Below are positions 10,319-39,720 of a stretch of 64,000 nucleotides of DNA, piece by piece. The stretch comes from Klebsiella phage KMI7. The notes beneath the pieces were generated by a model. That model did not search any database. It worked only from the letters and a program-made list of their open reading frames with translations, and was not told the origin of the DNA. Position 1 is the first letter of the stretch. The number at the start of each line of letters is the position of its first letter. The position numbers were made by a program, and so were the translations under genes. The DNA lies in sequence record MN101221.1; one strand, given 5' to 3'.

Positions 10319-10360
10319 AATATAACAAAGCCCCTGCACGAATGCAAGGGCTTTTTGATT
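10319..10360. repeat. intergenic hairpin repeat copy A (AATATAACAAAGCCCCTGCACGAATGCAAGGGCTTTTTGATT)
   Basis: Near-identical to copies at 35271-35312 and 39682-39720. Confidence 0.8.
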
Positions 10361-10721
10361 AGTGACCGATCCGGTACTTGTACTTGAGGATCCAATCTGC
10401 TTTTTGCGAGTGAGTCAGTACGCGGAAGTTGTTTTCTTCTGCAAACTTCAACCCAGGGGTTACGATCTTAACCATGCCCCACTCTTCGAGAAGTCGCGCA
10501 ATGTTGTTCCGGCGTAGTTCGTCTTCTTCCGTCATATCGACTTGACGACCATCGAGTTTCAACAGTTCTTTAAAATGCACGATAAAATACTTACCTTGCT
10601 TTTTCAGAATGTGACACGATTGCCAGAGCATTTTCTTTTTGTTGTTTGCAATACCAATACGGGTTAGCGTTTCACGGATCTTTAAAAAAGAATCGTCGCT
10701 GATTAGTTGAATTTCTAACAT
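10359..10721 (-). CDS. regA: translational repressor RegA
   Basis: 120 aa (T4 RegA is 122 aa); close match across RETLTRIGIANNK...CHILKKQGKYFIVHFKELLKLDGRQVDMTEEDE. Confidence 0.9.
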   Translation of the reverse strand: MLEIQLISDDSFLKIRETLTRIGIANNKKKMLWQSCHILKKQGKYFIVHFKELLKLDGRQVDMTEEDELRRNNIARLLEEWGMVKIVTPGLKFAEENNFRVLTHSQKADWILKYKYRIGH

Positions 10722-10724
10722 ACA

Positions 10725-11288
10725 TCACCATTGTTTAATCAATTTTTCCAATTTCTTTTGTTCAGCTTTGTTTTTCACAATACCCAACAAAGACAGAGCG
10801 ACCTTTGCGTGTTTTCTTTTCCAATCCTCGAACATTCCGAGGTCTTTAAGTTCCTGCAAATATTCCATCGCTGTACGTGTATTTACACTGTATTTTTCGC
10901 GAAGGATTTCGATAATAATTTTCTCTTCAAAATCTTCCGATAGTTTAGCCCATGCACCGAAGCGTTTAGCCTTCCTAACAGAGTTGAGATAATAGTTATA
11001 GTGCATTTGGTCAGAGATACTACCGCCTACCAGATTCATCACATACGCGTTGTATATCGTGTCTATGTGCTGGCTCATTGCGTTGTCTACAAAGTACTTA
11101 TCATACACTTCATCGATAACCAACGGCGTTTTGCCGTTGTTGATTTCGTCTATGATGTTAAACAAGGTGTTTTCTTTATCCTTGCCGTACTCTTTGACCA
11201 GTTCTTCAACCTTATCCCAATCTTTAGAAAGCCAAGCGGATTCATGCGGGGATAACTCTTCTTCATCCAGAAATTCCGCCAGGCTCAT
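10725..11288 (-). CDS. 62: clamp-loader subunit gp62
   Basis: 187 aa (T4 gp62 is 187 aa); position between regA and 44. Confidence 0.8.
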   Translation of the reverse strand: MSLAEFLDEEELSPHESAWLSKDWDKVEELVKEYGKDKENTLFNIIDEINNGKTPLVIDEVYDKYFVDNAMSQHIDTIYNAYVMNLVGGSISDQMHYNYYLNSVRKAKRFGAWAKLSEDFEEKIIIEILREKYSVNTRTAMEYLQELKDLGMFEDWKRKHAKVALSLLGIVKNKAEQKKLEKLIKQW

Positions 11289-11290
11289 GA

Positions 11291-12289
11291 TTACGCCTCC
11301 CAGACCATAGAAAGCATCAGGTTCATCAACAGATATTGCAGATGAATTTCTTTATTCATCGCCAGCCCGTATTGCGCGTTGTTTTCGCCTACAATCTGGA
11401 TCAGTGCGATTTTCGAATCCTGATTCACGATAGGGTAAATCGTATCAGTCAATTTTCCGATAAAGGTATCGTATTCTGACGCATATTTAATAACCTCAGA
11501 GCGCAACCCTTTATAGTTCTTTTCTTTCAACAGGGTAATGATATGAGACACATCAGAACCAACGATCTCATTTAGGATCCCCGCATCAATTTCACCACGT
11601 TTCGAGTAGAACCCGATCGCTTTGATAATAGAACGCGCATCCGGATAATGCTCTTTAACAAACGCTGCAATGACTTTAGGATCATACTTGATATTCTCGA
11701 TTTCAAGGATACCGAAACAACGCTTGATTAACTGTTTCATCAGTTCGATACGTTCAGCATCAGACGGAACACCGAATTTAACAGGAGGACAACGAGAAAG
11801 CAGAGCACTATGCACACCGTTAATGTTGTTCGCCGTTACAATAACAGAAACGTTTTTACTGTATGCTTCGATAAAGCTACGCAAGTGTTTCTGTGCTTCC
11901 GCCATACCAGAACGATCGAATTCATCAATGATGATAATCTTTCCGCCCGGTTTCTGCGTCATTGATGAAGCAAAACGATCCAGTTCATTACGAATGAAGT
12001 TTACACCACAGTTCGAACCGTTGACAAAGAACACCTCAGCATCAACCTCACGGGCCAACACAAGCGCGAGGGTCGTTTTACCAGTGCCAGGGGAATCAGA
12101 TACAAGGGTCATGTTCTCAACACGCCCAGATTTGATTATGCCCCGCATAGCGGCTTTGTCACCAGAAGGTAAAATACACTCTTCAATCGTTGTTGGGCGA
12201 TAGCGCTGATCCCATGCAAATTCATCAGGAGATCGGGAGATTTTACCGTATTTGGTTTCGATGATTTCAATATTTTCACTAAGTTCCAT
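11291..12289 (-). CDS. 44: clamp-loader ATPase gp44 (RFC-like AAA+)
   Basis: 332 aa. Walker A SPGTGKTT, Walker B IIIIDEFD, SRC motif. Confidence 0.9.
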   Translation of the reverse strand: MELSENIEIIETKYGKISRSPDEFAWDQRYRPTTIEECILPSGDKAAMRGIIKSGRVENMTLVSDSPGTGKTTLALVLAREVDAEVFFVNGSNCGVNFIRNELDRFASSMTQKPGGKIIIIDEFDRSGMAEAQKHLRSFIEAYSKNVSVIVTANNINGVHSALLSRCPPVKFGVPSDAERIELMKQLIKRCFGILEIENIKYDPKVIAAFVKEHYPDARSIIKAIGFYSKRGEIDAGILNEIVGSDVSHIITLLKEKNYKGLRSEVIKYASEYDTFIGKLTDTIYPIVNQDSKIALIQIVGENNAQYGLAMNKEIHLQYLLMNLMLSMVWEA

Positions 12290-12347
12290 AATATACCTTC
12301 AAAATAAATGGTGTAAAAGAAAGGGGCCGTAGCCCCTTAAAACTATC

Positions 12348-13013
12348 TTACTTGAATGTGCTACTTGCTTCAAGTACGACGACGTAAGCAACGCCGTTAT
12401 CAGAAGAGAATTTTGCGGCCCCTTTTGAGGAAATCTCTACTTTGTAATCGCTGTTGATGAACTGCATGTTATCAATCTTCATATCGAAATTGAAAACATT
12501 GTCACCTTCATACTCACCGACTTCAACGGAGAAAGTTGATTGACTTTCTTTGCTTTTCGCGGTGATGACCAGTTTACCATCAATCGGTTCAACGGACAGG
12601 TCGGTCAGTTTCATCATGCGAGACGCTTTGATCAGTTTTTCGAAATCGTTAGCGGTAATCTGGAAAATCAGATCTGCTACTGGCATCACCAGACGTTTTT
12701 TTGGTTTCGGGATCGTTGTTGCGTCTGCTGAACGTTCGATGATCTTCATCTTATCGCCGCGAATCACGATTTCACCAGTGGAAATATCATGAGTGATTTC
12801 CGCGTCAGTGCCGACGATGTTCAGCATGTTCAGGAATGAGTTGAGATCGTAGATACCAACATCTTCATCAATCACATCAGCAATTTCAGCTTCTGCGTAT
12901 ACAACGCTGTTGATTGATTTCGTCATGATGAATGAACCTTTGGTCAGCATGATCGAAGAGTTGATTTGAGAAAAGTTTTTCAGGATATCAATAGTTTGTT
13001 TAGAGAATTTCAT
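12348..13013 (-). CDS. 45: sliding clamp gp45
   Basis: 221 aa (T4 gp45 is 228 aa); N-terminal MKFSKQTIDILKNFSQINSSIML matches T4 MKLSKDTTALLKNFATINSGIML. Confidence 0.9.
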   Translation of the reverse strand: MKFSKQTIDILKNFSQINSSIMLTKGSFIMTKSINSVVYAEAEIADVIDEDVGIYDLNSFLNMLNIVGTDAEITHDISTGEIVIRGDKMKIIERSADATTIPKPKKRLVMPVADLIFQITANDFEKLIKASRMMKLTDLSVEPIDGKLVITAKSKESQSTFSVEVGEYEGDNVFNFDMKIDNMQFINSDYKVEISSKGAAKFSSDNGVAYVVVLEASSTFK

Positions 13014-13039
13014 ATTCAGCCTTTAGTTTTCAATAAGTG

Positions 13040-13309
13040 TTACTTAATAAGTGATTTTACAACGGTTTCCGCTGCGGTGTCAAGCATATCAGCCATTTCT
13101 TTAACGGTTGTACGCTTCGGATCTTCGCGGCGTTCGCTGGTAAGTTTACGATGTTCCGCAACCACTTTTTCATCAATGTCACGATAGTGTTTAAAACGTT
13201 CCTCTTGAGGCATAGCTTTAAACAGTTCTTTGGTTTCGTCCGAGAGTTTAGCAACCCAGGATTTACGGACGCGGTTCATGTAGTCAACAAAAACATTACT
13301 TTCATTCAT
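13040..13309 (-). CDS. hypothetical protein (occupies the rpbA-like position next to 45)
   Basis: 89-aa ORF; no motif recognised. Confidence 0.4.
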   Translation of the reverse strand: MNESNVFVDYMNRVRKSWVAKLSDETKELFKAMPQEERFKHYRDIDEKVVAEHRKLTSERREDPKRTTVKEMADMLDTAAETVVKSLIK

Positions 13310-13364
13310 ATATTTCTTCTCTAACTTAGAATTCTTTGAGTGGGGGCCGAAGCCCCCGCTTGTA

Positions 13365-14336: not shown

Positions 14337-14351
14337 ATTCTGTTTTCTCGT

Positions 14352-15253: not shown

Positions 15254-15256
15254 GCT

Positions 15257-15520: not shown

Positions 15521-15529
15521 TTTGTTACC

Positions 15530-16465: not shown

Positions 16466-16557
16466 ACATACCTCAATTTTTCAAAGAACGGGGTTATTGT
16501 AGTAACTTACGAAATGAAGTCAATACAAAAGATCATAAAATTTTTGATCAATAATAC

Positions 16558-16756: not shown

Positions 16757-16769
16757 TCAAAGAGGAAAT

Positions 16770-17828: not shown

Positions 17829-17836
17829 CAAACAAG

Positions 17837-21890: not shown

Positions 21891-22127
21891 ATGATCACCG
21901 AATCCAAAATGACTTATCAGGAAGCACTGAAAGTTTTGGGCGCAACTGGTAGCGAAACCAGCGCCGAAATGTCCAGACTCTTCAAACGTGCATCCTTACG
22001 CAATCACCCCGACCGTGGTGGTAGCAATGAATTAATGCAGAAAATTAACCAGGCTTACGACGTCGTTACAAAAACTGGGCCTAGTGGCGCACGTTCTGAG
22101 ACTGCTGGTGACGTTCGCGCACGTTAG
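21891..22127 (+). CDS. J-domain (DnaJ-like) protein
   Basis: 78 aa. YQEALKVLG...LFKRASLRNHPDRGGSNELMQKINQAYDVV is a canonical J-domain helix II-loop-helix III with an HPD motif. SD-like GAGGAACAATAAATG upstream. Confidence 0.7.
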   Translation: MITESKMTYQEALKVLGATGSETSAEMSRLFKRASLRNHPDRGGSNELMQKINQAYDVVTKTGPSGARSETAGDVRAR

Positions 22128-22185: not shown

Positions 22186-22575
22186 TTCATGCGCAAAGGT
22201 GCTTATGTGTTTAGCGCGGTGTATGATCCTGCTGTATCTAAGTATCGTCCGGCTGCACAACTTCGCGGAACCATGTTCGAAGACGAAGACGGCGCTTGCC
22301 TGGATATGATCGTTGATACGTTCAAAGAGTTGCAGAAACTGAAACCGAGTGTTCAAGGCGTTGTGAACGCGATCGATAAGATGAACGCAGAGTTTGCAGC
22401 GGGACATCGTTCAGCATCTTTTGTTAAACGTGTAGCTGCTCAGGAAGCCGCGCCGAAGCCAGAAGAGAAGCCAAAACGCACTGTTAATCGTATCGGTAAA
22501 GAGGCACTGGAAGAACGATATTCCAACATCACGGGGATCTTTTCCCCGTCCTTGACGTTGTTAATGATATCCTGA
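22186..22575 (+). CDS. hypothetical protein (ORF track 22084-22575 starts with GTG; first ATG at 22186)
   Basis: The +1 frame opens 44 nt before the J-domain gene stop. This could be an independent gene from ATG 22186 or a frameshifted continuation of the J-domain protein. Confidence 0.35.
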   Translation, partial: FMRKGAYVFSAVYDPAVSKYRPAAQLRGTMFEDEDGACLDMIVDTFKELQKLKPSVQGVVNAIDKMNAEFAAGHRSASFVKRVAAQEAAPKPEEKPKRTVNRIGKEALEERYSNITGIFSPSLTLLMIS

Positions 22576-22715: not shown

Positions 22716-22849
22716 TCCCCGTTTTTATCAATGTACATGATCCAATCAGCAACCGCCCAATGGGAAGTATTGCCTTTCGGAGTAGCTACGATGTAGGAAC
22801 CAGCTTTAAACAGTACGCGTTTAGTTTCGTTCAGGGTCAGGTCGCTCAT
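22703..22849 (-). CDS. hypothetical small protein
   Basis: Start at 22849 is preceded by the conserved TIR GAGGAATACATTATG (ORF track start is 22909). Confidence 0.35.
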   Translation of the reverse strand: MSDLTLNETKRVLFKAGSYIVATPKGNTSHWAVADWIMYIDKNGEWVQ

Positions 22850-22859
22850 AATGTATTCC

Positions 22860-23255
22860 TCATTTAACCAAAGTGAATCGTGATTCATAAGCATCGTTCG
22901 GGCGCTCATACACGGTATCCGAACTTGTAATGACAGTGTACACGGTTTCTTTCACAAGATCCATGATTTTCTGTGATTCTCCCCAGACATTGATACTAAA
23001 ATAAATCCCATTTTTAGGAATAGGATTGTATTCCATATCATAATACATATCCATGAGTTCACAAATGAACAGGCGGCGCTGTTCGTTATCATATGTGAAA
23101 TAAATGTTAAAACAATCGAGAGATTTACTCAAAGTAATCTCTTTGATAACGATGTTGTCTTGTTTGCTAAAATGATCGCGGATTGCTTGCACACAACGCA
23201 ACAGGTTAGGGTAATCATATTTTTGTGAAACAATGACTTGATGTGAAACGCTCAT
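22860..23255 (-). CDS. hypothetical protein
   Basis: 131 aa; TIR TTGAGAGGAATACATTATG. Confidence 0.5.
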   Translation of the reverse strand: MSVSHQVIVSQKYDYPNLLRCVQAIRDHFSKQDNIVIKEITLSKSLDCFNIYFTYDNEQRRLFICELMDMYYDMEYNPIPKNGIYFSINVWGESQKIMDLVKETVYTVITSSDTVYERPNDAYESRFTLVK

Positions 23256-23322
23256 AATGTATTCCTCTCAATTAGATACACTCATAATAAAAAAGCCCCC
23301 GACCGAAGTCAAGGGCTTTTTG

Positions 23323-24828: not shown

Positions 24829-26172
24829 TTAGAAATTGTCTTCGACAAACGCCGCGAGACGGGAACGATACACTGTATCAAGAATGATATGGCTTGAGTG
24901 TTCGTATTCTTTCAGCTTTTCAACAGCCCATACAAACCCGTTGTTAACGGCAGTGTTTCGAGGGTTGTCGATCTGCTTAATGTTCCCGCATAGTATCAGA
25001 AGTGTGTTCTCTCCGCAACGAGAAATGATAGATTTAATTTCGTGGTTGCTAAGGTTTTGACATTCATCAACAATCAGCACAGAACCTTTGCCCGGATCCG
25101 GATGTCCGATACTGCGACCACGGAAGTAATACAGGCTAGGGAATTGCACCACCCCTTTTTCAATCAAACCTTCAATGTATTTTTCAGATTCCGGATTATC
25201 CTTAAACAGAATATTCAGGCTAGTAATACAAGGTTCGATAGAAGGCCGGAGTTTTTCGCCCAATGTACCAGGAAGGAAGCCGATTTCACTTGATAACGGG
25301 CTATCTGACTTCACATACATCAAGTTAGCGTAATGTCCACTATTAACCAGGTGCATAGCACCGGAAACAGCAAGCATTGTTTTACCAGAACCAGCGCCGC
25401 CCATAATGGTAGCAACATCGATTTCATTGCTCATAATGGATTCGACAAAAGCCGCTTGCAGAGAATCACGGGGCTGAATAGCTTTCATGAGTTTGCGTTT
25501 CATAGCCTGTTCGTGCTTAACAGGTAAGACATTCAAGCAAATCTCATCAGCAGTCACCACACGCCCGACTAACTCACCATTTGAGGTAATGTACTGGTTA
25601 GGATAAAAATCTTCGTCAGGAAGCGAACTGTAAGTGATTTGGGCTACATTATCTGTATATCCCAACACTTCTACGGTATCCCAGAAATCAGGGATCTCTA
25701 CATAACCGGAATACAATACATCGCTATCTTTTAACGTATCGTCGCCAGTATACTGTTCTACCTTACACCCACGGGACATTGCGATCAGCAACATCATAAT
25801 ATCGCGAGTAACTAAGGTTGCATCCTGTTGCATACAAGTTTCAATGATTCGTTCGTCTTGCTTGTCAAGAGCAAACGTTTTGTTTCCGACATAATCAACC
25901 ACTTTAAGGGTGATAGTGTCAGACAGTGCTGGGTTTGTCAGGTTTAAAGGAATACCTGATTTCGTAATCGCATCATATGACTGACCGAAAATAACTTTTG
26001 ACAGAAGCCGGATCGCCAATCGTGCTTCGTGCGCTGTTCGTTCTTTCGTTTTCAGGTGATCTAATTCACCCATAGTAGCAGAGGTAATAATGATTTCTGT
26101 ACCAGGTTGAGTGAATGAATAGATTGAATAGGGGTTCGAGACTAAAACGTTAGTGTCTAAAACATATTTCAT
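24829..26172 (-). CDS. phoH: PIN-domain / PhoH-like ATPase fusion (PhoH2-type)
   Basis: N-terminal MKYVLDTNVLV PIN signature; C-terminal Walker A GGAGSGKT and Walker B LIVDECQN. Confidence 0.85.
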   Translation of the reverse strand: MKYVLDTNVLVSNPYSIYSFTQPGTEIIITSATMGELDHLKTKERTAHEARLAIRLLSKVIFGQSYDAITKSGIPLNLTNPALSDTITLKVVDYVGNKTFALDKQDERIIETCMQQDATLVTRDIMMLLIAMSRGCKVEQYTGDDTLKDSDVLYSGYVEIPDFWDTVEVLGYTDNVAQITYSSLPDEDFYPNQYITSNGELVGRVVTADEICLNVLPVKHEQAMKRKLMKAIQPRDSLQAAFVESIMSNEIDVATIMGGAGSGKTMLAVSGAMHLVNSGHYANLMYVKSDSPLSSEIGFLPGTLGEKLRPSIEPCITSLNILFKDNPESEKYIEGLIEKGVVQFPSLYYFRGRSIGHPDPGKGSVLIVDECQNLSNHEIKSIISRCGENTLLILCGNIKQIDNPRNTAVNNGFVWAVEKLKEYEHSSHIILDTVYRSRLAAFVEDNF

Positions 26173-26227
26173 AGAAAATTCCTGATTTGATTACGGGGTA
26201 CGCGGATTCGCACCCCGCGTACTGCAA

Positions 26228-27180: not shown

Positions 27181-27582
27181 TTAATAATCGTAAAGATCAC
27201 CGAAGCATAATTCAAATTCACGTTTACGTTTCATCTGTTCTTCTTTTCTCTCTTTCATATCAGAAGGGAGACGATCTTCATTGACTTCATCAATGTACGC
27301 TTGTGCATCCTCTTTTGTTAGAAAGAATGCATGGAAGTTATATCTGTTACGCCCATTCATACTACGGTCGTCAAGAGAGAATTGAGTGTGACAGTCCCAG
27401 TCATCAAACAGGGTGATGCATTTTGCAAACAGCCCTATACCGCGATTCATATAAGGGAAGCCAGTAACAATCATCTTGTTACCCATTTCCGCTTTTTCAC
27501 CGTCCACGCAGAATACTTCATACATGATCGCACCTGGTTTAACATCTTTCTTAACAGCACGTTTTTCAAAAGCACTTTTCAT
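27181..27582 (-). CDS. hypothetical protein
   Basis: 133 aa; TIR TTGAGAGGAATATATTATG. Confidence 0.5.
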   Translation of the reverse strand: MKSAFEKRAVKKDVKPGAIMYEVFCVDGEKAEMGNKMIVTGFPYMNRGIGLFAKCITLFDDWDCHTQFSLDDRSMNGRNRYNFHAFFLTKEDAQAYIDEVNEDRLPSDMKERKEEQMKRKREFELCFGDLYDY

Positions 27583-27636
27583 AATATATTCCTCTCAATT
27601 GGTGTAACTACAGGTTACTTGTTTATTTTCTGGATG

Positions 27637-27960
27637 TCAACAAGGTTTATCGTTTTTTGACGGAAAAGTTAGAGTGAACAAACGATCGTGAAGGTTGTCT
27701 ATCCGTTCACAAGCCTGTTTCAGTATGGTTTTATCACCATCATTTGTTGTTTCAATGCATCCAAGTTCATCGGCGTCAATGTTCACTACATCGCTCATCA
27801 ATGAAGCAAACACGTTAGCATCAGGATGTAACAGTTCTTCGATTTCGGCCTTCATGCCGTCGTGTTCAGAAAGGATATCAATAATATCGCGGGTTAAGTC
27901 TCCCTGGTACGGGAACCCCGTTTCTAAATGATTAATGATCCTTTGTGCTTTCGTAATCAT
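27637..27960 (-). CDS. hypothetical acidic protein
   Basis: 107-aa ORF. Confidence 0.45.
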   Translation of the reverse strand: MITKAQRIINHLETGFPYQGDLTRDIIDILSEHDGMKAEIEELLHPDANVFASLMSDVVNIDADELGCIETTNDGDKTILKQACERIDNLHDRLFTLTFPSKNDKPC

Positions 27961-27999: not shown

Positions 28000-28263
28000 T
28001 TAAAGTTCACAGCAACGGCACACACCGTATTTTGTAAATGGAGCATCACCGCTAACATAGGCCCAGAAATCACATGCTTCTTCGGCAGTATCGAAGATTG
28101 CAGCATCATAGAACCCGTGGGCTTCGTTACCGTTCTCATCGATGAAAACCGGAGTCCAGATATTAGGATTGAAGCAATCGTCAACAACAACCCAACCTTC
28201 TTTAGCTTTCATTGCTTCTTTGTTGGCTTCGATGTGAGCTAAGATTTCGTTCATGATGTCCAT
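28000..28263 (-). CDS. hypothetical protein
   Basis: 87 aa; preceded by the CGAAACGAAAC leader motif. Confidence 0.5.
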   Translation of the reverse strand: MDIMNEILAHIEANKEAMKAKEGWVVVDDCFNPNIWTPVFIDENGNEAHGFYDAAIFDTAEEACDFWAYVSGDAPFTKYGVCRCCEL

Positions 28264-28332
28264 TTTTCTCTCCTAAAGTGCGTTTCGTTTCGACAGGGCT
28301 ATAGTCTCATAACCCCGTATCTACGTCAACAC

Positions 28333-28593
28333 TTATTTGAAGCGAATTGTGCTATTTTTGAAAAATAATCCAGAGCACACAGCACCTTCAATTTTCACCC
28401 CTGTAGGACTTTTAGCAACGAACCCTGTTGCATAGGTGTCTTTCTCATCACATGCAAACCAGGCGTGGCCTGTGTACGTGATATCGGTAAACCCGTTAGC
28501 AGTCAGAATACGTTCGGCTTCTTTCTCATCGGTGCATCCGGCTTGTGCTAAAACGACAATGACGACTAACACCAAAGCAATAATATATTTCAT
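28333..28593 (-). CDS. small lipoprotein
   Basis: Signal peptide plus lipobox LAQAGC; mature part about 65 aa. Confidence 0.55.
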   Translation of the reverse strand: MKYIIALVLVVIVVLAQAGCTDEKEAERILTANGFTDITYTGHAWFACDEKDTYATGFVAKSPTGVKIEGAVCSGLFFKNSTIRFK

Positions 28594-31769: not shown

Positions 31770-32015
31770 AACAACCTCACTTCATTTTAGCAATGTATTT
31801 GTCAATACTCATGTAAACGCGGGTATACATTACAGCAGCGTGACGGTCGAAGAATCTTTCCCACCATTCCAGCGCTTCCGCTTTAGAAGGTTTCGCGCCC
31901 AGGGCATCGTGCATTTTGGCTTTGATTTCTGTTACTGTCAACATGTCCATTTTTATCCCCGTTTCGTTTCGGTATGGGTGTAAGATAACATCATCCTACA
32001 CCCAGCGCAAGCATT

Positions 32016-32364: not shown

Positions 32365-32616
32365 TCATTTTATACGTACCGCGTTAAAAGCCTGGTTCCG
32401 GAGATCATACGCTTTTTCAAGCTGTTCTGTAGTGAACAGATCACTATCCGAGTTTACTGTGAAACTGCAAATGGTTTTGTTGTCGGCGTTGACTTCTTCA
32501 ACAACGATATCATAACCCCAAATACCACTTAGTTCACATTTCACGTTACGGTACTTGATATAAACCGCAACAACATCTTCTTTTTTGTAGTTACGGCTTT
32601 TGTATAAAATTTCCAT
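32365..32616 (-). CDS. hypothetical protein
   Basis: 83 aa; preceded by a CGAAACGAAGC leader. Confidence 0.45.
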   Translation of the reverse strand: MEILYKSRNYKKEDVVAVYIKYRNVKCELSGIWGYDIVVEEVNADNKTICSFTVNSDSDLFTTEQLEKAYDLRNQAFNAVRIK

Positions 32617-32861
32617 TTCAAACTCCCTCTGCTTCGTTTCGATGGGGTAACAATACCAAATTCAAACCAGGATTGTTTAGCAATTAGTGCTATAACACAA
32701 ACGAACGCCCATCTTTTATAGATCGTTCCAGCGATGAAGCGGTTACTGTAAACTCAGGAAACCAGCACCCAAGATTACTTGACCACCACCAGACATTCAC
32801 GCCGTCTGTTTTAAATTCGATGTTAAGGTAAGTATTGAAAACGTGTTTCATGTTGTTCCCC

Positions 32862-33140
32862 TTACGCCATTTTCTTAGCGATTTTCCAGGAGGCTTTGAA
32901 CGCCGGAACGTCTTCAATATCAATCCAGAAACCAGATCCGAAACCATCACTATAGCAAGGGCAACCGTCGCAGTAGTTTTCCCAGGTCATCACTTCACCA
33001 CCAACAGAAGCACCAGTTTCCATAGCACGTAATGCATCTTCAACTTTTTCCAGTTTTTCGGCGTTGTCGTCGTAAATGACAAAGTACCATTTACCGTTGT
33101 ATTCGTTACCCAGTTTGATTGATTCGCGAACAAGTTTCAT
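32862..33140 (-). CDS. hypothetical protein
   Basis: ORF track start is 33188; probable start MKLVRES at 33140, downstream of the CGAAACGAAAC leader. Confidence 0.45.
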   Translation of the reverse strand: MKLVRESIKLGNEYNGKWYFVIYDDNAEKLEKVEDALRAMETGASVGGEVMTWENYCDGCPCYSDGFGSGFWIDIEDVPAFKASWKIAKKMA

Positions 33141-33209
33141 GATGATTTCCTTTTTGTCTGTTTCGTTTCTATGTGTGTAATATACCACAACCAGAATTTA
33201 ATGCAACAT

Positions 33210-33542
33210 TTATTTTGCTTCGAGTTCAATATTTTTCCATGTTTTCATCGGAACCCCTATCGCATCCCAAAACTTAACATCTTCCGCTGCAATCAGAGTA
33301 AAGAAGATCCCAGTTTTCCAGTATTTCCCGTTTCTGATTTCGTTTGCGATCTCATTCAACTGGTCGCAAAAATGTTCAGTCCAACTAACATCACCATCCC
33401 AACGAGTTTTCCCGTTGTACAGAGAGAATATGAAACTATCAATATAAGAAGATTTTCCGGTAGAGATACCCATCAAAACAGCCAGGATTGTGCGAACTGC
33501 ATATAAATTCTGAACCTCAACACTTCTCGTTTTAATAGTCAT
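33210..33542 (-). CDS. hypothetical protein
   Basis: ORF track start 33617 reads through the hairpin repeat; probable start MTIKTRSV at 33542. Confidence 0.45.
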   Translation of the reverse strand: MTIKTRSVEVQNLYAVRTILAVLMGISTGKSSYIDSFIFSLYNGKTRWDGDVSWTEHFCDQLNEIANEIRNGKYWKTGIFFTLIAAEDVKFWDAIGVPMKTWKNIELEAK

Positions 33543-33575
33543 TTCATGATTCCTCTGTTTTGTTTCGATGAATGC

Positions 33576-33615
33576 AATATAACAAAACCCCTCACCATAG
33601 GCAAGGGGTTTTTGC
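33576..33615. repeat. divergent copy of the intergenic hairpin repeat (AATATAACAAAACCCCTCACCATAGGCAAGGGGTTTTTGC)
   Basis: Same architecture (ATATAAC plus GC hairpin plus T-run) as copies A-C; loop and stem are diverged. Confidence 0.6.
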
Positions 33616-33620
33616 AAAAA

Positions 33621-34453: not shown

Positions 34454-34460
34454 ATATGCC

Positions 34461-35061: not shown

Positions 35062-35234
35062 ATTTCGATGTTAGGCGCGTAAGTAACGTTTACCTTATGC
35101 ATAGTGCGGTATTTGTAAGCGGCTTTGTACGCATCGAGTTCAGTCGGAACACAGAAAGAGAAACCGTTATCATAGCGTTCTGCGTTAGAAACTTCACAAC
35201 CAACTACAGCGGCAATGTTTTTATTCATGTTCAT
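35034..35234 (-). CDS. hypothetical small protein
   Basis: ORF track start 35291 reads through the hairpin repeat; probable start MNMNKNIAAV at 35234. Confidence 0.4.
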   Translation of the reverse strand: MNMNKNIAAVVGCEVSNAERYDNGFSFCVPTELDAYKAAYKYRTMHKVNVTYAPNIEMWLVQVYKA

Positions 35235-35270
35235 GATGTTTTCCTTTCTCTGTTTCGTTTCGATGTGTGT

Positions 35271-35312
35271 AATATAACAAAGCCCCTGCACGAATGCAAG
35301 GGCTTTTTGATT
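35271..35312. repeat. intergenic hairpin repeat copy B
   Basis: Identical 42-mer to copy A; preceded by the CGAAACGAAAC leader on the minus sense. Confidence 0.8.
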
Positions 35313-36749: not shown

Positions 36750-37071
36750 TATGTATCACCCACAGCAATAAAAAAGAATTGATAAATGCAAAAGTGGTAC
36801 AGATTGCAGCAAAAACACGCGCATTATGAACCTGTGTTTTCAATTCTGCGATCTCTTGATCCTTTTCGCTTTCAAACTCTTCGCGAGTACCATAATACCC
36901 AGGATCGTTAGCCGTTGCCAATCTAACCGCATCTTTTTCAACCAGCGTTGCGTAACCGCTTTTTATTTGTGTCGCCCCGTACCATCCACCCCGATCGTTG
37001 TTAATGATCAGATGATCGCCCTTTTCGTTATGCTTTGATTCGCCAACAACAATAACCCGCTTACCATTCAT
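36739..37071 (-). CDS. hypothetical C-terminally membrane-anchored protein
   Basis: 110 aa; C-terminal hydrophobic AAICTTFAFINSFLLLWVI. Confidence 0.45.
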   Translation of the reverse strand: MNGKRVIVVGESKHNEKGDHLIINNDRGGWYGATQIKSGYATLVEKDAVRLATANDPGYYGTREEFESEKDQEIAELKTQVHNARVFAAICTTFAFINSFLLLWVIHNVG

Positions 37072-37099
37072 AATATGATCCTCAAAGGGGCCGAAGCCC

Positions 37100-37357
37100 C
37101 TATTTCGCGTTCTTCTGTAGATAATATAACAGATTTCCGCTTTGATGTAAATCTAAAACTTTAGAAAACTTCTCTGCGTTTCTTTCGTTTGTGAGTTCGT
37201 CGAAATGCCATACACCATCATCAGCTATTAACGCGCCAGGTGATGAACCTGTTTCTACATCACGGGAAAGCGCAAGCCCCAGAGGGTGTAAGATTTCGCG
37301 GTTAATGCGCCAAACAAGGCCCATTTCAGATAGAGTATTAAAATCGACGTATCTCAT
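37100..37357 (-). CDS. hypothetical protein
   Basis: 85-aa ORF. Confidence 0.45.
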   Translation of the reverse strand: MRYVDFNTLSEMGLVWRINREILHPLGLALSRDVETGSSPGALIADDGVWHFDELTNERNAEKFSKVLDLHQSGNLLYYLQKNAK

Positions 37358-37358
37358 A

Positions 37359-37742
37359 TTATGCCTTTGGTTTCACACCGTAGGCCAACATACCGAAACG
37401 ATGATCATTATCTGCATCTTTAAACAGAACTTCGTTACCATCAATGCAGATGACCTTTGCTTCCGGATCGATGTATGGTAACAACCATAAAGGGATCAGG
37501 CGTAGGCCGCTATGTTCATCCCAGCGACTGAAATTGAGTTCTTCCAGTTCATCAAGGGAAAGATCATTAGGATCGATATAACGGAACCATTTGGTATTTT
37601 TGAGGCGGTCGGGGAAGTTTACGATTTCTTCATAGCCGAATTCAGCACTCCATGAAGAGTAAACAGTGACTTCGGATGCTTTGGTTAAAACAGCATCACG
37701 AATTGATTTGCAGATATCGATTAAAGTCAGTTGATTTTCCAT
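37359..37742 (-). CDS. hypothetical protein
   Basis: 127-aa ORF. Confidence 0.45.
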   Translation of the reverse strand: MENQLTLIDICKSIRDAVLTKASEVTVYSSWSAEFGYEEIVNFPDRLKNTKWFRYIDPNDLSLDELEELNFSRWDEHSGLRLIPLWLLPYIDPEAKVICIDGNEVLFKDADNDHRFGMLAYGVKPKA

Positions 37743-37752
37743 GATATATTTC

Positions 37753-38160
37753 TCATCTTGCTAAAATTTTAGGCAGTAGTTGCCCCATCGTTTTACGTGC
37801 ATGTGACGGAATCTGTGAGATCGGGACATATTTAAAATCATCCATTTCACGTATAGTCCGTCCGTTCTTAACGAAAGTTGATGCACAATAGCATTCTTCC
37901 GCTACTGGGTAATCTTGCCCTACATAGAGGAATAAAGCAAGGTTTTTTGTTTTCGTGTAATCGAGAACACCCAGACTAACCAATTCCTCCGCGAACACTT
38001 CAAATCCTGTTTCTTCGAAGCATTCGCGGATCGCCGCGTCAATGTGAGTTTCGCCCTTTTCAACATGCCCCTTCGGAATATCCCAATGGGGCGTTTCAGT
38101 GGCATGGCCCATCAACACGGCACCATCTTTAACAAAGATAATACCCGCTGATAGTTCCAT
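37753..38160 (-). CDS. Nudix hydrolase
   Basis: Nudix box GHVEKGETHIDAAIRECFEETG (Gx5Ex7REUxEExGU). Confidence 0.8.
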   Translation of the reverse strand: MELSAGIIFVKDGAVLMGHATETPHWDIPKGHVEKGETHIDAAIRECFEETGFEVFAEELVSLGVLDYTKTKNLALFLYVGQDYPVAEECYCASTFVKNGRTIREMDDFKYVPISQIPSHARKTMGQLLPKILAR

Positions 38161-38406
38161 TTATTCACCTTCAAAAGCGTTATCAAATGCTTCAAGTGCT
38201 TTGTTAGCGCGAGCACTGGCTTTTGTCACACCAGCAGAAAGGTTTTCGAAGAAAGTATGTTTCCACACTTCGCGGCGACTGGATTCATGTTCCAGAAGGT
38301 TTTTGTGATTACCGCGAATCTGTTCTTCCATGTTGTAACGGTACAGATCGAGTTCTGTGTTTAATTCCTGTTCTAATGCCTGTGCAAATACTTGATCAAT
38401 ATTCAT
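38161..38406 (-). CDS. hypothetical protein
   Basis: 81-aa ORF abutting the Nudix gene. Confidence 0.4.
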   Translation of the reverse strand: MNIDQVFAQALEQELNTELDLYRYNMEEQIRGNHKNLLEHESSRREVWKHTFFENLSAGVTKASARANKALEAFDNAFEGE

Positions 38407-38654
38407 TTTGTATAGCCTATTTCAGATTTAAGGTTTTCGAGGGTAGAATGATAAACAACATTCCCTTCGTGTCGAGTATACCATACTTTTCCGTTCTGGT
38501 TACACTCATTCATTACATTTTCATCTAAACCAGGGTTCGGCTTCATGCTGGGAGAAAACGCGATAGACATCATTTGTTCTGCACTATCAGCAAACCCACA
38601 AGGGAAAACAGATCCAGTTGGTTTATCAAGATACATCAACTCTACTTTAGCCAT
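38403..38654 (-). CDS. hypothetical protein
   Basis: ORF track start is 38774; probable start MAKVEL at 38654. Confidence 0.4.
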   Translation of the reverse strand: MAKVELMYLDKPTGSVFPCGFADSAEQMMSIAFSPSMKPNPGLDENVMNECNQNGKVWYTRHEGNVVYHSTLENLKSEIGYTK

Positions 38655-38940
38655 AGATTTCTTCGAAATCCTCACAATCAGGCAAATACGTTTCACAGAA
38701 GGTGCAAAGCGTAAAGAATGCAGGTTGACGAATACCAGGATTATCCGGTAGATACATCCAGAAGGTGTTAGCAAACACGATGAATGTTTTCAGGTTTTCG
38801 GTGGTGATTTCGCTAACACCATCATACCCGGATTGATTGATCGCGCGTTGCAGTGGCACCTCATACTGTTCGCAATAGTCGGCATAATGATCGCTTGTTA
38901 CAAGGCCATTAGCCATTTTAATCAAATCGACGATTTTCAT
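38647..38940 (-). CDS. hypothetical Cys-rich protein
   Basis: 97-aa ORF. Confidence 0.4.
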   Translation of the reverse strand: MKIVDLIKMANGLVTSDHYADYCEQYEVPLQRAINQSGYDGVSEITTENLKTFIVFANTFWMYLPDNPGIRQPAFFTLCTFCETYLPDCEDFEEIYG

Positions 38941-39272
38941 GATTTTACATATTCCACTTTAACAGGTTTTGCAACAAATTTATCTTTGGTGCGCCCATGA
39001 CCATTACACAGGTCACATTCTTTGTTGAAATCTTTCATATCTTCAACCCATCCAGAATCTGGCAACCCAGACGGATATGCGTTATAACGAATGGTTTCAT
39101 AACCTTTTCCGTTGCACTTCGGGCAAACATGAGGACGTTCTTTTTTAGCAGACTCTGCCAGTTCGCGAAGGGTGGTAGAACTACCATAAGCCCGACACAT
39201 GTTTTCAAAGTCTTTTAAAGTCATTCTATAAACATCAATGACGTTATATTTTTTGCCGGATGGTTTAGCCAT
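38937..39272 (-). CDS. protein with two DnaJ CR-type zinc-finger repeats
   Basis: CPKCNGKG and CDLCNGHG. Probable start MAKPSGKK at 39272 with TIR GAGAAATATATTATG (ORF track start is 39392). Confidence 0.45.
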   Translation of the reverse strand: MAKPSGKKYNVIDVYRMTLKDFENMCRAYGSSTTLRELAESAKKERPHVCPKCNGKGYETIRYNAYPSGLPDSGWVEDMKDFNKECDLCNGHGRTKDKFVAKPVKVEYVKS

Positions 39273-39681
39273 AATATATTTCTCACTTAAAGAATTTTTT
39301 GATGAAAGAGATAGCAAGGCCGATACCAAAGAAAACCCAATATGCTTTACCATCACCATTTGCCAACACATAAACTGCGTTACCGTATGCAAAGATTTCC
39401 GCGATGTTCATTAAGTTTCTCATGATATCCTCCTTTTTCTATATTAAGTATCTTACCATAATATAAACCAAAGTCAACAACAAAGTTTTATCAACCCACT
39501 TATCACCAGTCATTAGTAATCCCCTACAGGTTGAGACGCCGCAACACTCAGGATCTTGAAAGTGCAATTGTTCCACTCACAATACGTTTTTGCACAGTGA
39601 ACACTTCCTTTCATAACAAACCCGTTTGAGAAAATTAACCAGTAAAGTTTCATGATAGCCTCCTTTGTTTCGACAAGGCCA

Positions 39682-39720
39682 ATATAACAAAGCCCCTGCA
39701 CGAATGCAAGGGCTTTTTTC
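39682..39720. repeat. intergenic hairpin repeat copy C
   Basis: AATATAACAAAGCCCCTGCACGAATGCAAGGGCTTTTTT; identical core to copies A and B. Confidence 0.8.

Follow-up and report, generated by a model that had tools for sequence, protein, structure and literature searches.

Repeated intergenic units in a Slopekvirus

What are the short, near-identical sequences that recur ahead of minus-strand genes in this DNA, and what could they do there? The window, i.e. the whole 64,000-nucleotide stretch that was analysed, is 98–99% identical to Slopekvirus genomes and therefore comes from a Slopekvirus, a T4-like phage of Klebsiella. About ten short intergenic units are reused in it, each of which, judging from its sequence, would terminate one transcript and initiate the next at a host-type promoter. 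We regard it as probable that they are composite transcription-unit boundaries of the PeSL (promoter-early stem-loop) type, a judgement that applies jointly to the whole explanation, recombination included. The units (cassettes) and their putative elements, all on the minus strand, are as follows.

10288..10354 (-): cassette 1, separating regA (10359-10721) from gene 10003-10290; hairpin 10327-10354; -35 TTGCAT 10342-10347; -10 TATATT 10319-10324, extended by TGt; +1 predicted at the A near 10312; translation start of type B, TTGAGAGGGATATATTATG 10288-10306
23253..23321 (-): cassette 2, ahead of gene 22860-23255; variant hairpin AAAAAGCCCTTGACTTCGGTCGGGGGCTTTTT 23290-23321; -35 TTGACT 23307-23312; -10 TATTAT 23284-23289; type-B start region 23253-23271
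27580..27640 (-): cassette 3, hairpin-less, gene 27181-27582; TTGACA 27635-27640; 17-nt spacer; TAACCT 27612-27617; type-B start region 27580-27598
28261..28355 (-): cassette 4, hairpin-less; upstream ATAGCAC 28349-28355; -35 TTGACG 28324-28329; weak -10 GACTAT 28301-28306; CGAAACGAAAC 28282-28292; ATG 28263
31948..32010 (-): cassette 5; -35 TTGCGC 32005-32010; -10 TATCTT 31982-31987 in the loop of a 7-bp stem (31976-32003); CGAAACGAAAC 31961-31971, 10 nt after the -10; ATG 31950
32614..32693 (-): cassette 6, T1-phage-type build; ATAGCACtaaTTGCTAAA 32676-32693; no canonical -35; -10 TATTGT 32650-32655; taccccAT, then CGAAACGAAGC 32631-32641; ATG 32616
33138..33206 (-): cassette 7, hairpin-less form of the same promoter, frd.1-like gene 32862-33140; TTGCAT 33201-33206; 16-nt spacer; TATATT 33179-33184; acacacAT, then AGAAACGAAAC 33160-33170; ATG 33140
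33540..33612 (-): cassette 8; hairpin AAAACCCCTTGCCTATGGTGAGGGGTTTT 33584-33612; -35 TTGCCT 33599-33604; -10 TATATT 33576-33581; leader CGAAACAAAAC 33557-33567; ATG 33542
35232..35306 (-): cassette 9, the most complete copy; hairpin 35279-35306; -35 TTGCAT 35294-35299; -10 TATATT 35271-35276; acacac; predicted +1 A at about 35264; CGAAACGAAAC 35252-35262; AGAG AAAGGA Shine-Dalgarno; ATG 35234
39651..39716 (-): cassette 10; hairpin 39689-39716; -35 TTGCAT 39704-39709; -10 TATATT 39681-39686; half leader CGAAAC 39667-39672 merging into AAGGAGG; ATG 39653

The repeats are genuine and non-random. A 38-nt hairpin core is present in three identical copies (10319, 35271 and 39681), with diverged relatives at 33576 and 23284. 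The 42-mer of the original prediction is exact at 10319-10360 and 35271-35312 (0 expected in shuffles); in its supposed third near-identical copy the core (39681-39718) is identical and the last four bases differ, which placed it outside a 3-mismatch search of the 42-mer. The diverged copy was recovered at 33576-33613, where 8 of the 38 bases differ, and a fifth member of the same build, missed in the first reading, lies at 23284-23321. As to the motif said to follow each hairpin, TTATATT does stand after every copy, but ACACACAT is found only after the copy at 35271 and in the unit at 33179, which has no hairpin. The window also holds many other hairpin terminators, of the GGGGCTTCGGCCCC type, without promoter features.

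Promoter and terminator anatomy

Read on the minus strand, each hairpin has the form of an intrinsic-terminator stem-loop whose 5' arm holds a sigma-70 -35 hexamer (TTGCAT, TTGACT or TTGCCT), with an extended -10 (TGtTATATT) 17 nt further on. The promoter had earlier been placed after the hairpin; the -35 hexamer is in fact inside the 5' arm, and the spacer is made up of the loop, the 3' arm and the U-tract. All five hairpin units share the -35 TTGnnn, the 17-nt spacer and the -10, and the same promoter also occurs without a hairpin at 33179-33206. Folded as RNA, the sense strand reached -19.3 to -22.7 kcal/mol (z -4 to -6.7), compared with -15 to -16 when the antisense strand was folded. Among 20 distinct cassettes from several genera the stem covaries (GC/AU/CG, CG/AU/UA, AU/CG/GC), and the TTG of the -35, itself invariant, is paired by U.G or U-A, wobbles that work in sense-strand RNA only. 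This anatomy, with its spacing, strand specificity and covariation, is a direct observation.

The -35 hexamers match TTGACA at only 3–5 of 6 positions, the -10 hexamers of some units are weak (GACTAT, TATTGT, TAACCT), and cassette 6 is without a canonical -35. Since a generic sigma-70 scan of the region revealed no enrichment over shuffles (53 versus 49.7), what carries the case is where the elements lie and how well they are conserved, not their fit to the consensus. Comparison with the late consensus and with the MotA box spoke against both a late-promoter and a MotA-type middle-promoter reading, there being no TATAAATA and no box at the right distance at the cassettes. The broader idea of modular terminator plus promoter/leader units reused before minus-strand genes agrees with this anatomy and with the published PeSL concept.

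Leader and translation-start motifs

The CGAAACGAAAC-type motifs number six, all of them intergenic and on the minus (coding) strand. A search for the leader motif GTTTCGTTTCG with up to one mismatch gave 8 matches against 2.1 expected, a number reached in no shuffle. These include the six sites originally predicted (28282, 31961, 32631, 33160, 33557 and 35252); the remaining two (22819 and 29897) lie within ORFs and equal the chance expectation in number. A stricter regular expression returned exactly the six intergenic, minus-strand sites, and the partial leader suspected near 39667 is a true half copy (39667-39672).

The leader does not immediately precede the ATG, as had been thought: the CGAAAC motif begins 20–30 nt upstream of it in the window, a range taken from the scan and, for two units which the scan missed, counted from the cassette coordinates. 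Its position is fixed at 8 nt after the -10 hexamer. The distance from -10 to CGAAA was 8 nt in 4 of the 5 genuine window cassettes picked up by the scan, in 11 of 17 scan hits in KP15, in 4 of 5 in RB16 and in 5 of 6 in Rtp, whereas that from CGAAA to the ATG varied from 17 to 31 nt. Because the former is fixed and the latter variable, the leader appears to be anchored to the transcription start and not to the start codon; beginning 8 nt after the -10, CGAAACGAAAC would therefore represent +3 to +13 of the new transcript. The leaders are almost unstructured (MFE 0 to -4.1 kcal/mol; z > 0 in 7 of 8).

A second translation-initiation region had been claimed at four genes. Its motif, TTGAGAGGRATAYATTATG, gave 3 matches against 0.03 expected, at the ATGs of 10290, 23255 and 27582; the fourth gene, at 22849, has only AGGAATACATTATG in common with them.

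Distribution among phages

Cassettes were found in 8–13 places per genome in Slopekvirus and Pseudotevenvirus. Unexpectedly, the block comprising the -10 and +1 to +13 recurs in T1-like phages, Aeromonas T4-like phages and the PL-like promoters of lambdoid prophages, and the upstream aaATAGCACnnnTTGnTAAA element is likewise common to these three; the motif class can thus not be called specific to this phage, as first suggested. Conservation across genera, again observed directly, extends to TATATT/TATTAT and the 8-nt spacing to CGAAA, also in phages without the hairpin (Aeh1, Rtp and the lambdoid prophages). Between Slopekvirus and Aeromonas phage Aeh1 the -10-to-ATG block of cassette 9, its Shine-Dalgarno region included, has hardly changed, unlike its flanks, which have diverged. 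In the lambdoid prophages the same +1 to +13 sequence precedes a leader of about 250 nt that is free of ORFs, far from start codons. An Rfam search with the conserved leader block returned no family.

Recombination and gene content

Gene 33210-33542, which has a cassette at either end, is present in 53 of 160 related records. The polymorphic segment, which AYL has too, is:

33192..33554 (-): polymorphic unit, gene 33210-33542 together with sequence amounting to one cassette

It is absent from KP15, Miro, mtp5 and RB16. KP15 carries in place of the gene one chimeric cassette, the hairpin of cassette 8 joined to the leader of cassette 7; RB16 has the same single-cassette arrangement, and the breakpoints given by blastn agree between KP15 and both Miro and mtp5, down to the 36-nt overlap. 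A single chimeric cassette replacing a gene is, as read from these sequences, the signature of a PeSL indel. An ORF swap relative to AYL and KP15 pivots on cassette 5, a 170-bp small-ORF indel abuts the 5' edge of cassette 6 (32692/32862), and a homing-endonuclease indel (26169-26227) touches no cassette.

The suggested recombination hot spot has in its favour at least one presence/absence polymorphism with a cassette at each end and a chimera left behind. The association with indels as a whole is suggestive but does not reach statistical significance: of 8 structural differences among Slopekviruses, 3 touch a cassette, and 9 of the 49 gene junctions are occupied by one (P ~0.17). Because units of 60–100 bp are near-identical at several places, we propose that homologous recombination between them may occasionally remove, insert or swap the small genes which they flank. 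Strong selection instead of recombination could also account for the identity of paralogous copies.

Proposed mechanism and alternative explanations

RNA polymerase coming from the upstream gene would transcribe the GC-rich stem-loop (about -19 to -23 kcal/mol) and then UUUGUUAUAUU, and would terminate. The same DNA would serve as a promoter, with the -35 in the 5' stem arm, the loop, 3' arm and T-tract as the 17-nt spacer, and TGtTATATT as the extended -10. From it the unmodified host sigma-70 holoenzyme would initiate a new early transcript at the A of cAT, about 7 nt downstream of the -10, and the initial transcribed sequence, CGAAACGAAAC, would be followed by a purine-rich, essentially unstructured 5' UTR ending in a Shine-Dalgarno sequence and ATG. 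The second motif, TTGAGAGGAATAYATTATG, would be an alternative 3' ending of the same cassettes, with Shine-Dalgarno GAGG, an AU-rich spacer and ATG. We infer terminator and promoter activity and early timing from the sequence and from experiments made on the PeSLs of RB49 instead of the present units; the precise point of initiation and whatever particular function the +3 to +13 bases have are likewise predictions, our best guess for that function being efficient initiation and promoter escape together with an open leader.

It is possible though doubtful that the CGAAACGAAAC block is mainly an RNA element governing how early messages are expressed or decay, either as a binding site for a factor such as ribosomal protein S1, Hfq or a RegA/RegB-type regulator or by enhancing translation, and that it is not selected for transcription initiation. 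The block is strand-specific, purine-rich and located in an unstructured leader; RegA is encoded in the window (10359-10721), a RegB-like endoribonuclease is annotated beside cassette 2 in Matisse and Miro, and the conservation of cassette 9 down to Aeh1 takes in the whole block up to the ATG. Against this, the block keeps its distance from the -10 and not from the ATG, stands far from any start codon in the lambdoid prophages, and has no Rfam family. This reading does not exclude the main explanation, since it concerns only what the +3 to +13 bases are selected for. It is improbable that the hairpins are mere intrinsic terminators copied around the genome, their hexamers by-products of a GC stem and T-tract and the true promoters elsewhere. 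Matisse and Miro annotate them simply as terminators, and the many other hairpin terminators of the window, of the GGGGCTTCGGCCCC type, lack promoter features; yet a TTGCAT-N16-TATATT-acacacat-AGAAACGAAAC unit exists without a hairpin at 33160-33206, all 20 cassette variants keep the TTG of the -35 whereas the bases paired with it and the remaining stem vary, and the -10 with its fixed 8 nt to CGAAA is kept even in hairpin-less phages.

Middle-mode promoters dependent on a phage activator (MotA/AsiA-type sigma appropriation), with hairpins that only terminate early transcripts, are quite improbable. The -35 hexamers are imperfect, CTTGCATTC loosely resembles a MotA box, and the KP15 record labels these sites 'putative middle promoter; discovered using MEME'; the label, however, goes back in the available text to a MEME motif search only (PMC5219037). 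Of the 4 matches to TGCTTnA-N11-13-TAnnnT in the window, where 2.3 were expected, none falls at a cassette, and TTGnnn lies exactly 17 nt from the -10, which is sigma-70 spacing and 2–4 nt too far for a MotA box. The relative RB43 has neither motA nor a middle-promoter consensus (PMC1524935), and the five KP15 ORFs after the holin, the location of asiA/motA in T4 and the only ones covered, gave no MotA/AsiA Pfam match. Highly improbable, finally, is a role at the level of DNA, in which a site-specific recombinase or homing endonuclease would act on the units, or the units would be MITE-like small mobile elements, their transcription signals being incidental. Near-identical copies are dispersed, relatives have homing endonuclease genes in this region, and a stem-loop-binding recombination protein was speculated upon in the available text of Arbiol et al. 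(PMC2839356); but the units lack terminal inverted repeats and target duplications, are always intergenic and oriented with the downstream gene, and are missed by the homing-endonuclease indel. Nor is a symmetrical DNA site conserved, because the stem tolerates G.U pairs and these would become A.C mismatches on the opposite strand.

Comparison with known systems

The PeSL-type cassettes favoured here share a subfamily-level transcription programme and a TAnnnT -10 with the MotA-dependent middle and late promoters of T4, which differ in having a MotA box at -30 or TATAAATA. The 'putative middle promoter' and ARNold 'terminator' features of KP15 and KP27 (Maciejewska et al. 2017, PMC5219037) are the orthologous sites themselves: KP15 25635-25667 corresponds to cassette 1, annotated there as overlapping promoter and terminator, and 82918-82955 to cassette 2, a promoter and terminator in KP15 and a terminator in Matisse. 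As far as the available text goes, a motif search alone underlies their annotation, the label given is middle-mode, and neither the overlap of promoter and terminator nor the leader nor a link to PeSLs is discussed.

PeSLs were described in RB49/phi1 as stem-loops between or overlapping the -35 and -10 boxes, with promoter and terminator activity tested (Arbiol et al. 2010, PMC2839356), and in other T4-like phages including T4/PST and KVP40/nt-1 (Comeau et al. 2014, PMC4122927). On the available text of these papers, both PeSLs and the window cassettes are intergenic, about 60–100 bp long and located in hyperplastic regions; both have a sigma-70-like promoter (N17), an AT-rich upstream part, a GC-rich stem-loop able to lie between or overlap the boxes, and a terminal Shine-Dalgarno sequence and ATG, and both adjoin ORF gains, losses and swaps between close relatives. 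The window cassettes differ in belonging to Slopekvirus, a genus absent from those analyses as available, in a stem of the form GCCC-TTGCA.../...TGCAGGGGC, whose 5' arm always contains the -35, and in a -35 less consensus-like than that of RB49. They have in addition cAT-CGAAACGAAAC, the conserved block at the predicted start of the transcript, and some units also have the upstream ATAGCAC; the available text of the two papers mentions neither.

The T1-like phages TLS, T1 and Rtp possess a 21-nt direct repeat, aaATAGCACnnnTTGnTAAAA, described in Drexlerviridae only, where it has been proposed to be a stoperator, enhancer or UP element (German et al. 2024, PMC11447400). In the window the repeat lies, in the same orientation, upstream of cassettes 4 and 6, most of the others being without it; several cassettes of KP15 and RB16 also have it upstream. 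KP15 (L004, about 10085) and Rtp (about 3459) both have ATAGCACttttt.TTAAAA ... TATAGTTACCCCATCGAAAC with unrelated sequence between, and PMC11447400 draws no link from the repeat to the downstream -10/ATCGAAAC block or to T4-like phages. The strong early promoters A1 and A3 of T7, which use host RNA polymerase, resemble the cassettes in a pyrimidine-rich discriminator ending in C and a start with A; from the start sites annotated in the record, they begin ATCGAG... and ATGAAACGACAG... after a C-rich discriminator. A1 begins ATCGAGAGG and A3 as given, compared with ATCGAAACGAAACAG in the cassettes, a likeness that covers only the first 5–12 transcribed bases; unlike the hairpin cassettes, A1 and A3 have no embedded terminator hairpin, and T7 belongs to an unrelated family. 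The PeSL type of element is thus already known, and the surprise is a conserved transcript start common to unrelated phage families.

Intergenic cassettes of the accessory region

Ten minus-strand intergenic units, referred to as cassettes 1 to 10, have the following lower coordinates in the window:

10288, minus strand: cassette 1
23253, minus strand: cassette 2
27580, minus strand: cassette 3
28261, minus strand: cassette 4
31948, minus strand: cassette 5
32614, minus strand: cassette 6
33138, minus strand: cassette 7
33540, minus strand: cassette 8
35232, minus strand: cassette 9
39651, minus strand: cassette 10

The best-supported account is that these are boundaries of the PeSL (promoter-early stem-loop) type, in which a putative intrinsic terminator of the upstream message is fused to a predicted host-type early promoter that would lead to a conserved start and an open leader.

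Megablast placed the window in Slopekvirus, i.e. among the T4-like Klebsiella phages of the Straboviridae, with the segment 33000–36000 showing 98–99% identity to many isolates (e.g. AYL, pR7_1 and mtp7) and a T4-like gene order around it (lys ... gene 1, gene 3, 53, 5, 6, 7). The cassettes lie mostly within the block of small minus-strand ORFs from the endolysin to the dNMP kinase gene, a classical hyperplastic region; nine of the ten fall in the small-ORF region between lys and gene 1, and one follows regA. Every one of them has a stop codon on one side and an ATG on the other. Judged from the KP15 annotation, the repeat copy at 10319 belongs to the cluster of replication genes, where it directly follows regA.

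The 42-nt hairpin repeat of the original prediction was recovered exactly at 10319–10360 and 35271–35312, with no copy expected by chance. Its third copy is identical over a 38-nt core (39681–39718) and differs in the last four bases, while the diverged copy was confirmed at 33576–33613 with mismatches at 8 of 38 positions. An additional member of the same build was found at 23284–23321. The six leader sites were all retrieved using GTTTCGTTTCG with at most one mismatch (8 matches against 2.1 expected); the other two matches, at 22819 and 29897, fall within ORFs and are as many as chance would give. The stricter pattern [CA]GAAAC[GA]AA[AG]C matched exactly the same six sites, each of them intergenic and on the minus strand. 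The second motif (type-B), TTGAGAGGRATAYATTATG, gave three matches against 0.03 expected, and the fourth site claimed for it, at 22849, shares just the final 14 bases. Two details were inexact: ACACACAT, given as following each hairpin, is seen behind one copy only, and the CGAAAC motif does not adjoin the ATG, the distance between them varying from 17 to 31 nt.

Promoter and hairpin anatomy

On the minus strand the hairpin units follow the plan AAAAAGCCC-TTGCAT-TCG-TGCAGGGGC-TTTG-TTATATT. The 5' arm and loop contain a sigma-70-like -35 box (TTGCAT, TTGACT or TTGCCT), and exactly 17 nt past it stands TATATT or TATTAT with TGt in front, which constitutes an extended -10. Across the whole set, nine of the ten units possess TTGCAT, TTGACT, TTGCCT, TTGACA or TTGCGC, a spacer of N16–17, and TATATT, TATTAT or TATCTT, pointing to the downstream ORF; among the ten, a canonical -35 is absent from cassette 6. 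Stems of 12–14 bp with a trailing U-rich tract occur in five units, cassette 5 has a weaker stem around the -10, and the four other units have no hairpin. The U-rich tract that would complete the intrinsic terminator is thus also the promoter spacer and -10. A hairpin-less version of the promoter at 33179–33206 (TTGCAT-N16-TATATT-acacacat-AGAAACGAAAC) makes the promoter reading independent of the stem. A generic sigma-70 consensus scan gave 53 matches against 49.7 in shuffles and, since it showed no enrichment, was not relied upon.

The sense-strand RNAs fold at -19.3 to -22.7 kcal/mol (z -4.0 to -6.7) and the antisense strands at -15 to -16. Covariation was examined in a set of 20 different cassettes drawn from Slopekvirus, Pseudotevenvirus and one Aeromonas phage. 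A MAFFT/RNAalifold alignment of the 20 hairpins called 6 pairs only, the stem being under-called through register shifts, and stem pairs from single-sequence folds were instead tabulated relative to the invariant CTTG. Stem positions were found to covary (GC/AU/CG, CG/AU/UA and AU/CG/GC); the TTG of the -35 is constant in all 20 variants while its pairing partners switch between G/A and C/U. The frequent U.G pairs fit a hairpin in the sense-strand RNA only, and therefore point to a terminator for the upstream gene. Predicted termination of the upstream message would place 3' ends within the UUUGUUAUAUU tract. Rfam scans of the window returned no family.

A separate promoter-like unit was seen at 3857–3895 (minus strand), TTGACT-gggggcgaaaaagcccc-TACAAT, in which a hairpin lies entirely within the 17-nt spacer. 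The ATG of the gene at 3659–3856 is just 10 nt past this unit, and a transcript from the predicted promoter would be nearly leaderless.

Leader and transcript start

In most cases the -10 and CGAAA are 8 nt apart: in four of the five genuine window cassettes picked up by the scan, in 11 of 17 scan hits in KP15, in four of five in the segment from RB16 and in five of six in phage Rtp. Given the usual 7 nt between -10 and start, transcription is predicted to begin at the A of cAT, which makes the CGAAAC motif positions +3 to +13. From +1 to about +50, the predicted 5' regions are nearly unstructured (0 to -4.1 kcal/mol), seven of eight being less stable than their own shuffles. The anchoring of the motif to the -10, and the fact that in lambdoid prophages it stands ahead of an extended non-coding leader, lead us to favour for +3 to +13 a role in promoter escape or initiation, or one exerted at the nascent 5' end, over a role at the ribosome-binding site; a combined role would be possible.

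The type-B motif TTGAGAGGAATAYATTATG comprises a Shine-Dalgarno sequence, a spacer and the ATG, and its position is fixed to the start codon. A mixed cassette of KP15 has a TTGACT hairpin followed by TATATT, CGAAAC and TGAGAGAATATATTATG, and such mixed cassettes make the units mosaics of a few interchangeable modules. The proposal of modular terminator-plus-promoter/leader units is supported.

RegA, a translational repressor of early genes, is encoded at 10359–10721. The AU-rich type-B start regions of the form GAGGAAUAYAUUAUG at 10288–10306, 23253–23271 and 27580–27598 are candidate RegA targets.

Distribution and conservation

With the 87-nt cassette 9 as query, genomes of Slopekvirus and Pseudotevenvirus (RB16, RB43, Lw1, Miller, GAP161 and Enterobacter phages) gave 8–13 matching places apiece, and Aeromonas T4-like phages gave single, weaker matches; contrary to one suggestion of the original prediction, the family is not specific to KMI7. 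In an alignment of cassette 9 orthologues, the stretch from TGTTAT to ATGAACATG is near-invariant from Slopekvirus to Aeromonas phage Aeh1, and the upstream gene and hairpin are strongly diverged, as is the downstream gene in Aeh1. Non-orthologous copies within one genome can be identical, as are the three 38-nt cores in the window, whereas the orthologous copies of RB16 show 5–7 differences in 38 positions (ungapped comparison) or a different hairpin subtype. This fits exchange between copies or very strong selection.

Structural variation and recombination

The 22.5–42.5 kb region of the window was compared with KP15, AYL, Miro, mtp5, mtp7, W11-4 and two Pseudotevenvirus genomes. The clearest indel is 33192–33554, where the gene at 33210–33542 is flanked by cassettes 8 and 7. 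At this site the flanking matches to KP15 overlap by 36 nt, and KP15 has a single chimeric cassette consisting of the hairpin of cassette 8 and acacacat-AGAAACGAAAC from cassette 7. The blastn breakpoints and 36-nt overlap in Miro and mtp5 are the same as in KP15, and RB16 has the same single-cassette arrangement. The gene is present in 53 of 160 related records, and in many of the others the match is split in two, with about 400 bp collapsed. One clean chimeric-cassette polymorphism thus segregates among sequenced isolates.

Two further events touch cassettes. At cassette 5 the order in AYL is [ORF x][cassette][gene D] against [cassette][ORF y][gene D] in the window, with ATGGACATGTTGAC in common at the joints. 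A 170-bp indel corresponds to a small ORF of about 53 codons (32690–32862, minus strand) that separates cassette 6 from the frd.1-like gene. This ORF is found in the window and in only 22 phage records (e.g. M1, phiEap-3, RB16 and RB43) and is cleanly missing in most Slopekviruses; its two endpoints coincide precisely with the stop codon of frd.1 and with the first base of cassette 6. Five structural differences lie away from cassettes:

26169–26227: homing-endonuclease gene
near 29–30 kb: two variable segments
31.1–31.5 kb: a difference in Miro
W11-4: one difference

At 26169–26227 an AP2/HNH homing endonuclease gene of about 540 bp (KP15, AYL, Miro and mtp5) is replaced in the window by a 57-nt intergenic stretch. 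On this sequence comparison, recombination between cassettes may be regarded as demonstrated in kind because of the chimeric joint at 33192–33554. The further idea of a recombination hot spot is not demonstrated: three of eight events touch cassettes, which occupy 9 of 49 gene junctions, and the excess is not significant (P ~0.17).

An unusual junction at 22499–22504, with a 6-nt overlap, is spanned by none of 176 related records. It joins KP15 position 37554 (inside KP15_51) to 82133 (inside KP15_118), skipping about 44.6 kb that in KP15 contain frd, td, nrdA/B, DNA ligase, tRNAs and baseplate hub genes. A second deletion relative to KP15, of 489 bp, is located at 22121–22126. The junction may be genuine, as a deletion or rearrangement, or else the product of a chimeric assembly. 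Deletion mediated by cassettes was considered and rejected, the junction lying inside two ORFs with the 6-nt overlap only and no cassette. Normally the 10319 copy is about 45 kb further from the other copies; the conclusions on cassettes are unaffected by the junction.

The start block and ATAGCAC element in other phages

A viral contig collection was scanned for TATWWT-N5-CATCGAAACGAAAC, for which less than one chance match is expected assuming about 10^11 bases. At least 120 loci from several unrelated groups were obtained. Among the matches listed, T4-like contigs form one group; another has about 27 sites with ATAGCAC upstream, mostly in contigs of 45–53 kb, and includes the T1-like phage Rtp (Drexlerviridae); and about 60 are lambdoid prophage-like sites in which the motif is preceded by diverse promoters with operators, downstream of a gene for a cI-like repressor. 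In the lambdoid sites the motif is followed by an ORF-free leader of about 250 nt and then by recombination genes, a PL-like position. In 185,579 bacterial species genomes the pattern occurred only 20 times against about 4 expected by chance, mostly in Enterobacterales prophages or probable phage contamination contigs; it is therefore a phage signal and not a host promoter signal.

Locus L012 (6085–6370) and about 60 similar loci (L010–L124, among the matches listed) have the ATCGAAACGAAAC start followed by a conserved GC-rich leader. The lambdoid leader could be a nut- or put-like antitermination RNA; an Rfam scan of seven motif-bearing loci found no family, and HK022 was rejected as the source of a mapped PL/put leader with the motif, which is absent there. 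Two contigs in assemblies of non-enteric species, one of 178,077 bp (T4-like phage size) from Flagellimonas marina with three copies of the pattern (L141/L142/L145), and one of 46,669 bp (T1-like phage size) from Nitratidesulfovibrio liaohensis with two (L136/L139), are probably enterobacterial phage contamination.

Rtp (L130) carries about 20 copies of ATAGCAC(nnn)TTGnTAAA followed by TATAgT-TACCcc-ATCGAAAC. The upstream part of this arrangement is aaATAGCACnnnTTGnTAAAA, a direct repeat of 21 nt that was described, with function unknown, from the T1-like phage TLS in 2024 (PMC11447400). In T1-like phages such as Rtp the ATAGCACnnnTTGnTAAA repeat is separated by a fixed 31–32 nt from TATAgT, which is followed by TACCccATCGAAA, and there is no canonical -35. 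This arrangement suggests that the 'orphan' TLS repeats are parts of promoters. A TLS-type element occurs upstream of window cassette 6 and, in partial form (ATAGCAC at 28349–28355), of window cassette 4, as well as of several KP15 and RB16 cassettes; it is absent from the other eight window cassettes. In cassette 6, ATAGCACtaaTTGCTAAA (32676–32693) is 77 nt before the ATG, compared with about 76 nt between the TLS repeat and the start codon, in the direction of transcription. The sequence TATAGTTACCCCATCGAAAC is exact in both KP15 (L004, 10085) and Rtp, and the sequence between the elements is unrelated. In a set of 51 distinct sequences, ATAGCAC and the -10 are 31–32 nt (n=42) or 41–42 nt (n=8) apart, with one outlier at 49 nt; the two classes differ by one helical turn, and the longer contains the hairpin with its -35.

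A tentative reading, to which we give less than even weight, is that the cAT-CGAAACGAAAC start and the aaATAGCACnnnTTGnTAAA upstream element belong to one promoter architecture with rigid spacing, in which +1 to +13 would itself be selected and ATAGCAC would be the site of a factor or polymerase. The architecture is common, wholly or partly, to unrelated phages of Enterobacterales and Aeromonas, namely T4-like Straboviridae (several genera), T1-like Drexlerviridae and, for the transcript start only, lambdoid PL-like promoters. The +1 to +13 block could, for example, help host RNA polymerase to initiate or escape, or be a target for a host factor at the nascent 5' end, and ATAGCAC would be a putative recognition site for a factor or a polymerase contact. 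The early promoters A1 and A3 of T7 begin, at their annotated starts, with ATCGAGAGG and ATGAAACGACAG after a C-rich discriminator, which is a resemblance and not a test. Literature searches found no phage paper for the literal CGAAACGAAAC and were unproductive for T1-like transcript-start data.

That the start block and ATAGCAC element are shared across families is the part that specialists might not expect. The same first 13 transcribed bases after the -10 in T4-like, T1-like and lambdoid phages, together with ATAGCAC at helically phased distances in T4-like cassettes, are a testable lead and suggest how virulent enterobacterial phages may build very strong early promoters. If true, the ATAGCAC site would explain 'promoter-less' T1-like genomes, a suggested reason why standard promoter finders detect almost none there.

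Alternative promoter classes

The original prediction had also considered a middle or late promoter class, and in the KP15 RefSeq record the same sites are indeed labelled 'putative middle promoter; discovered using MEME', overlapping 'putative terminator; discovered using Arnold'. The accompanying paper gives 17 and 41 putative middle promoters in KP15 and KP27, respectively (PMC5219037). The sequence gives no support to the 'middle' label. The T4 MotA box, (a/t)(a/t)(a/t)TGCTTtA, is centred at -30 and 11–13 nt from the -10, whereas the TTG hexamer of the cassettes (TTGCAT) is 17 nt away, at sigma-70 spacing, and no cassette has a MotA box at the proper distance; TGCTTnA-N11–13-TAnnnT had 4 matches in the window against 2.3 expected and none at cassettes. 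In RB43, motA and the middle consensus are reported absent (PMC1524935), and none of the five KP15 ORFs that follow the holin, the asiA/motA position in T4, had a Pfam match to MotA or AsiA. Late promoters are excluded, the T4 octamer TATAAATA being found only at 41385 and 51566 in 64 kb, in neither case in a cassette. A sigma-32 reading of TTGAA-N12-CCCCAT in cassette 6 was likewise rejected: CCCCAT is one variant of the pyrimidine-rich discriminator, and the other units are without a correctly spaced TTGAA. For this phage group the database label would be corrected from middle promoters of the MotA type to early promoters of the host type, joined to terminators.

The two octamers in 64 kb compare with about four expected, although late genes for the baseplate are encoded at 45–64 kb; Slopekvirus may have a consensus for late promoters that differs from that of T4.

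Comparison with known PeSL cassettes

The PeSLs of T4-type phages are described as intergenic cassettes with a strong sigma-70-like promoter and AT-rich upstream part, a stem-loop between or overlapping the boxes, and a Shine-Dalgarno sequence and ATG downstream; for examples in RB49/phi1 promoter and terminator activity is given as shown and a role in modular gene shuffling as proposed (PMC2839356; PMC4122927). Work on RB49/phi1 used reporter fusions, transcript-end mapping and inverse PCR, and the PeSL concept also includes mini-circles formed when neighbouring units recombine, and insertions, deletions and replacements between close relatives that leave chimeric cassettes at the joints. Slopekvirus and Pseudotevenvirus would join the lineages with PeSL-type cassettes at points of gene gain and loss. 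In the accessory region one cassette would insulate one to a few small genes as a transcription-unit rule, and compact terminator-promoter-leader units may serve as insulated expression parts in phage engineering.

The window cassettes resemble PeSLs in having sigma-70-like boxes about 17 nt apart, oriented to the downstream ORF; in the stable predicted terminator stem-loop that overlaps the promoter boxes in five units; and in their intergenic location in a hyperplastic region, where each runs up to the Shine-Dalgarno sequence and start codon that open a small ORF. The hairpins are annotated as terminators in the Matisse and Miro records. The cassettes are of the known PeSL kind and partly annotated already.
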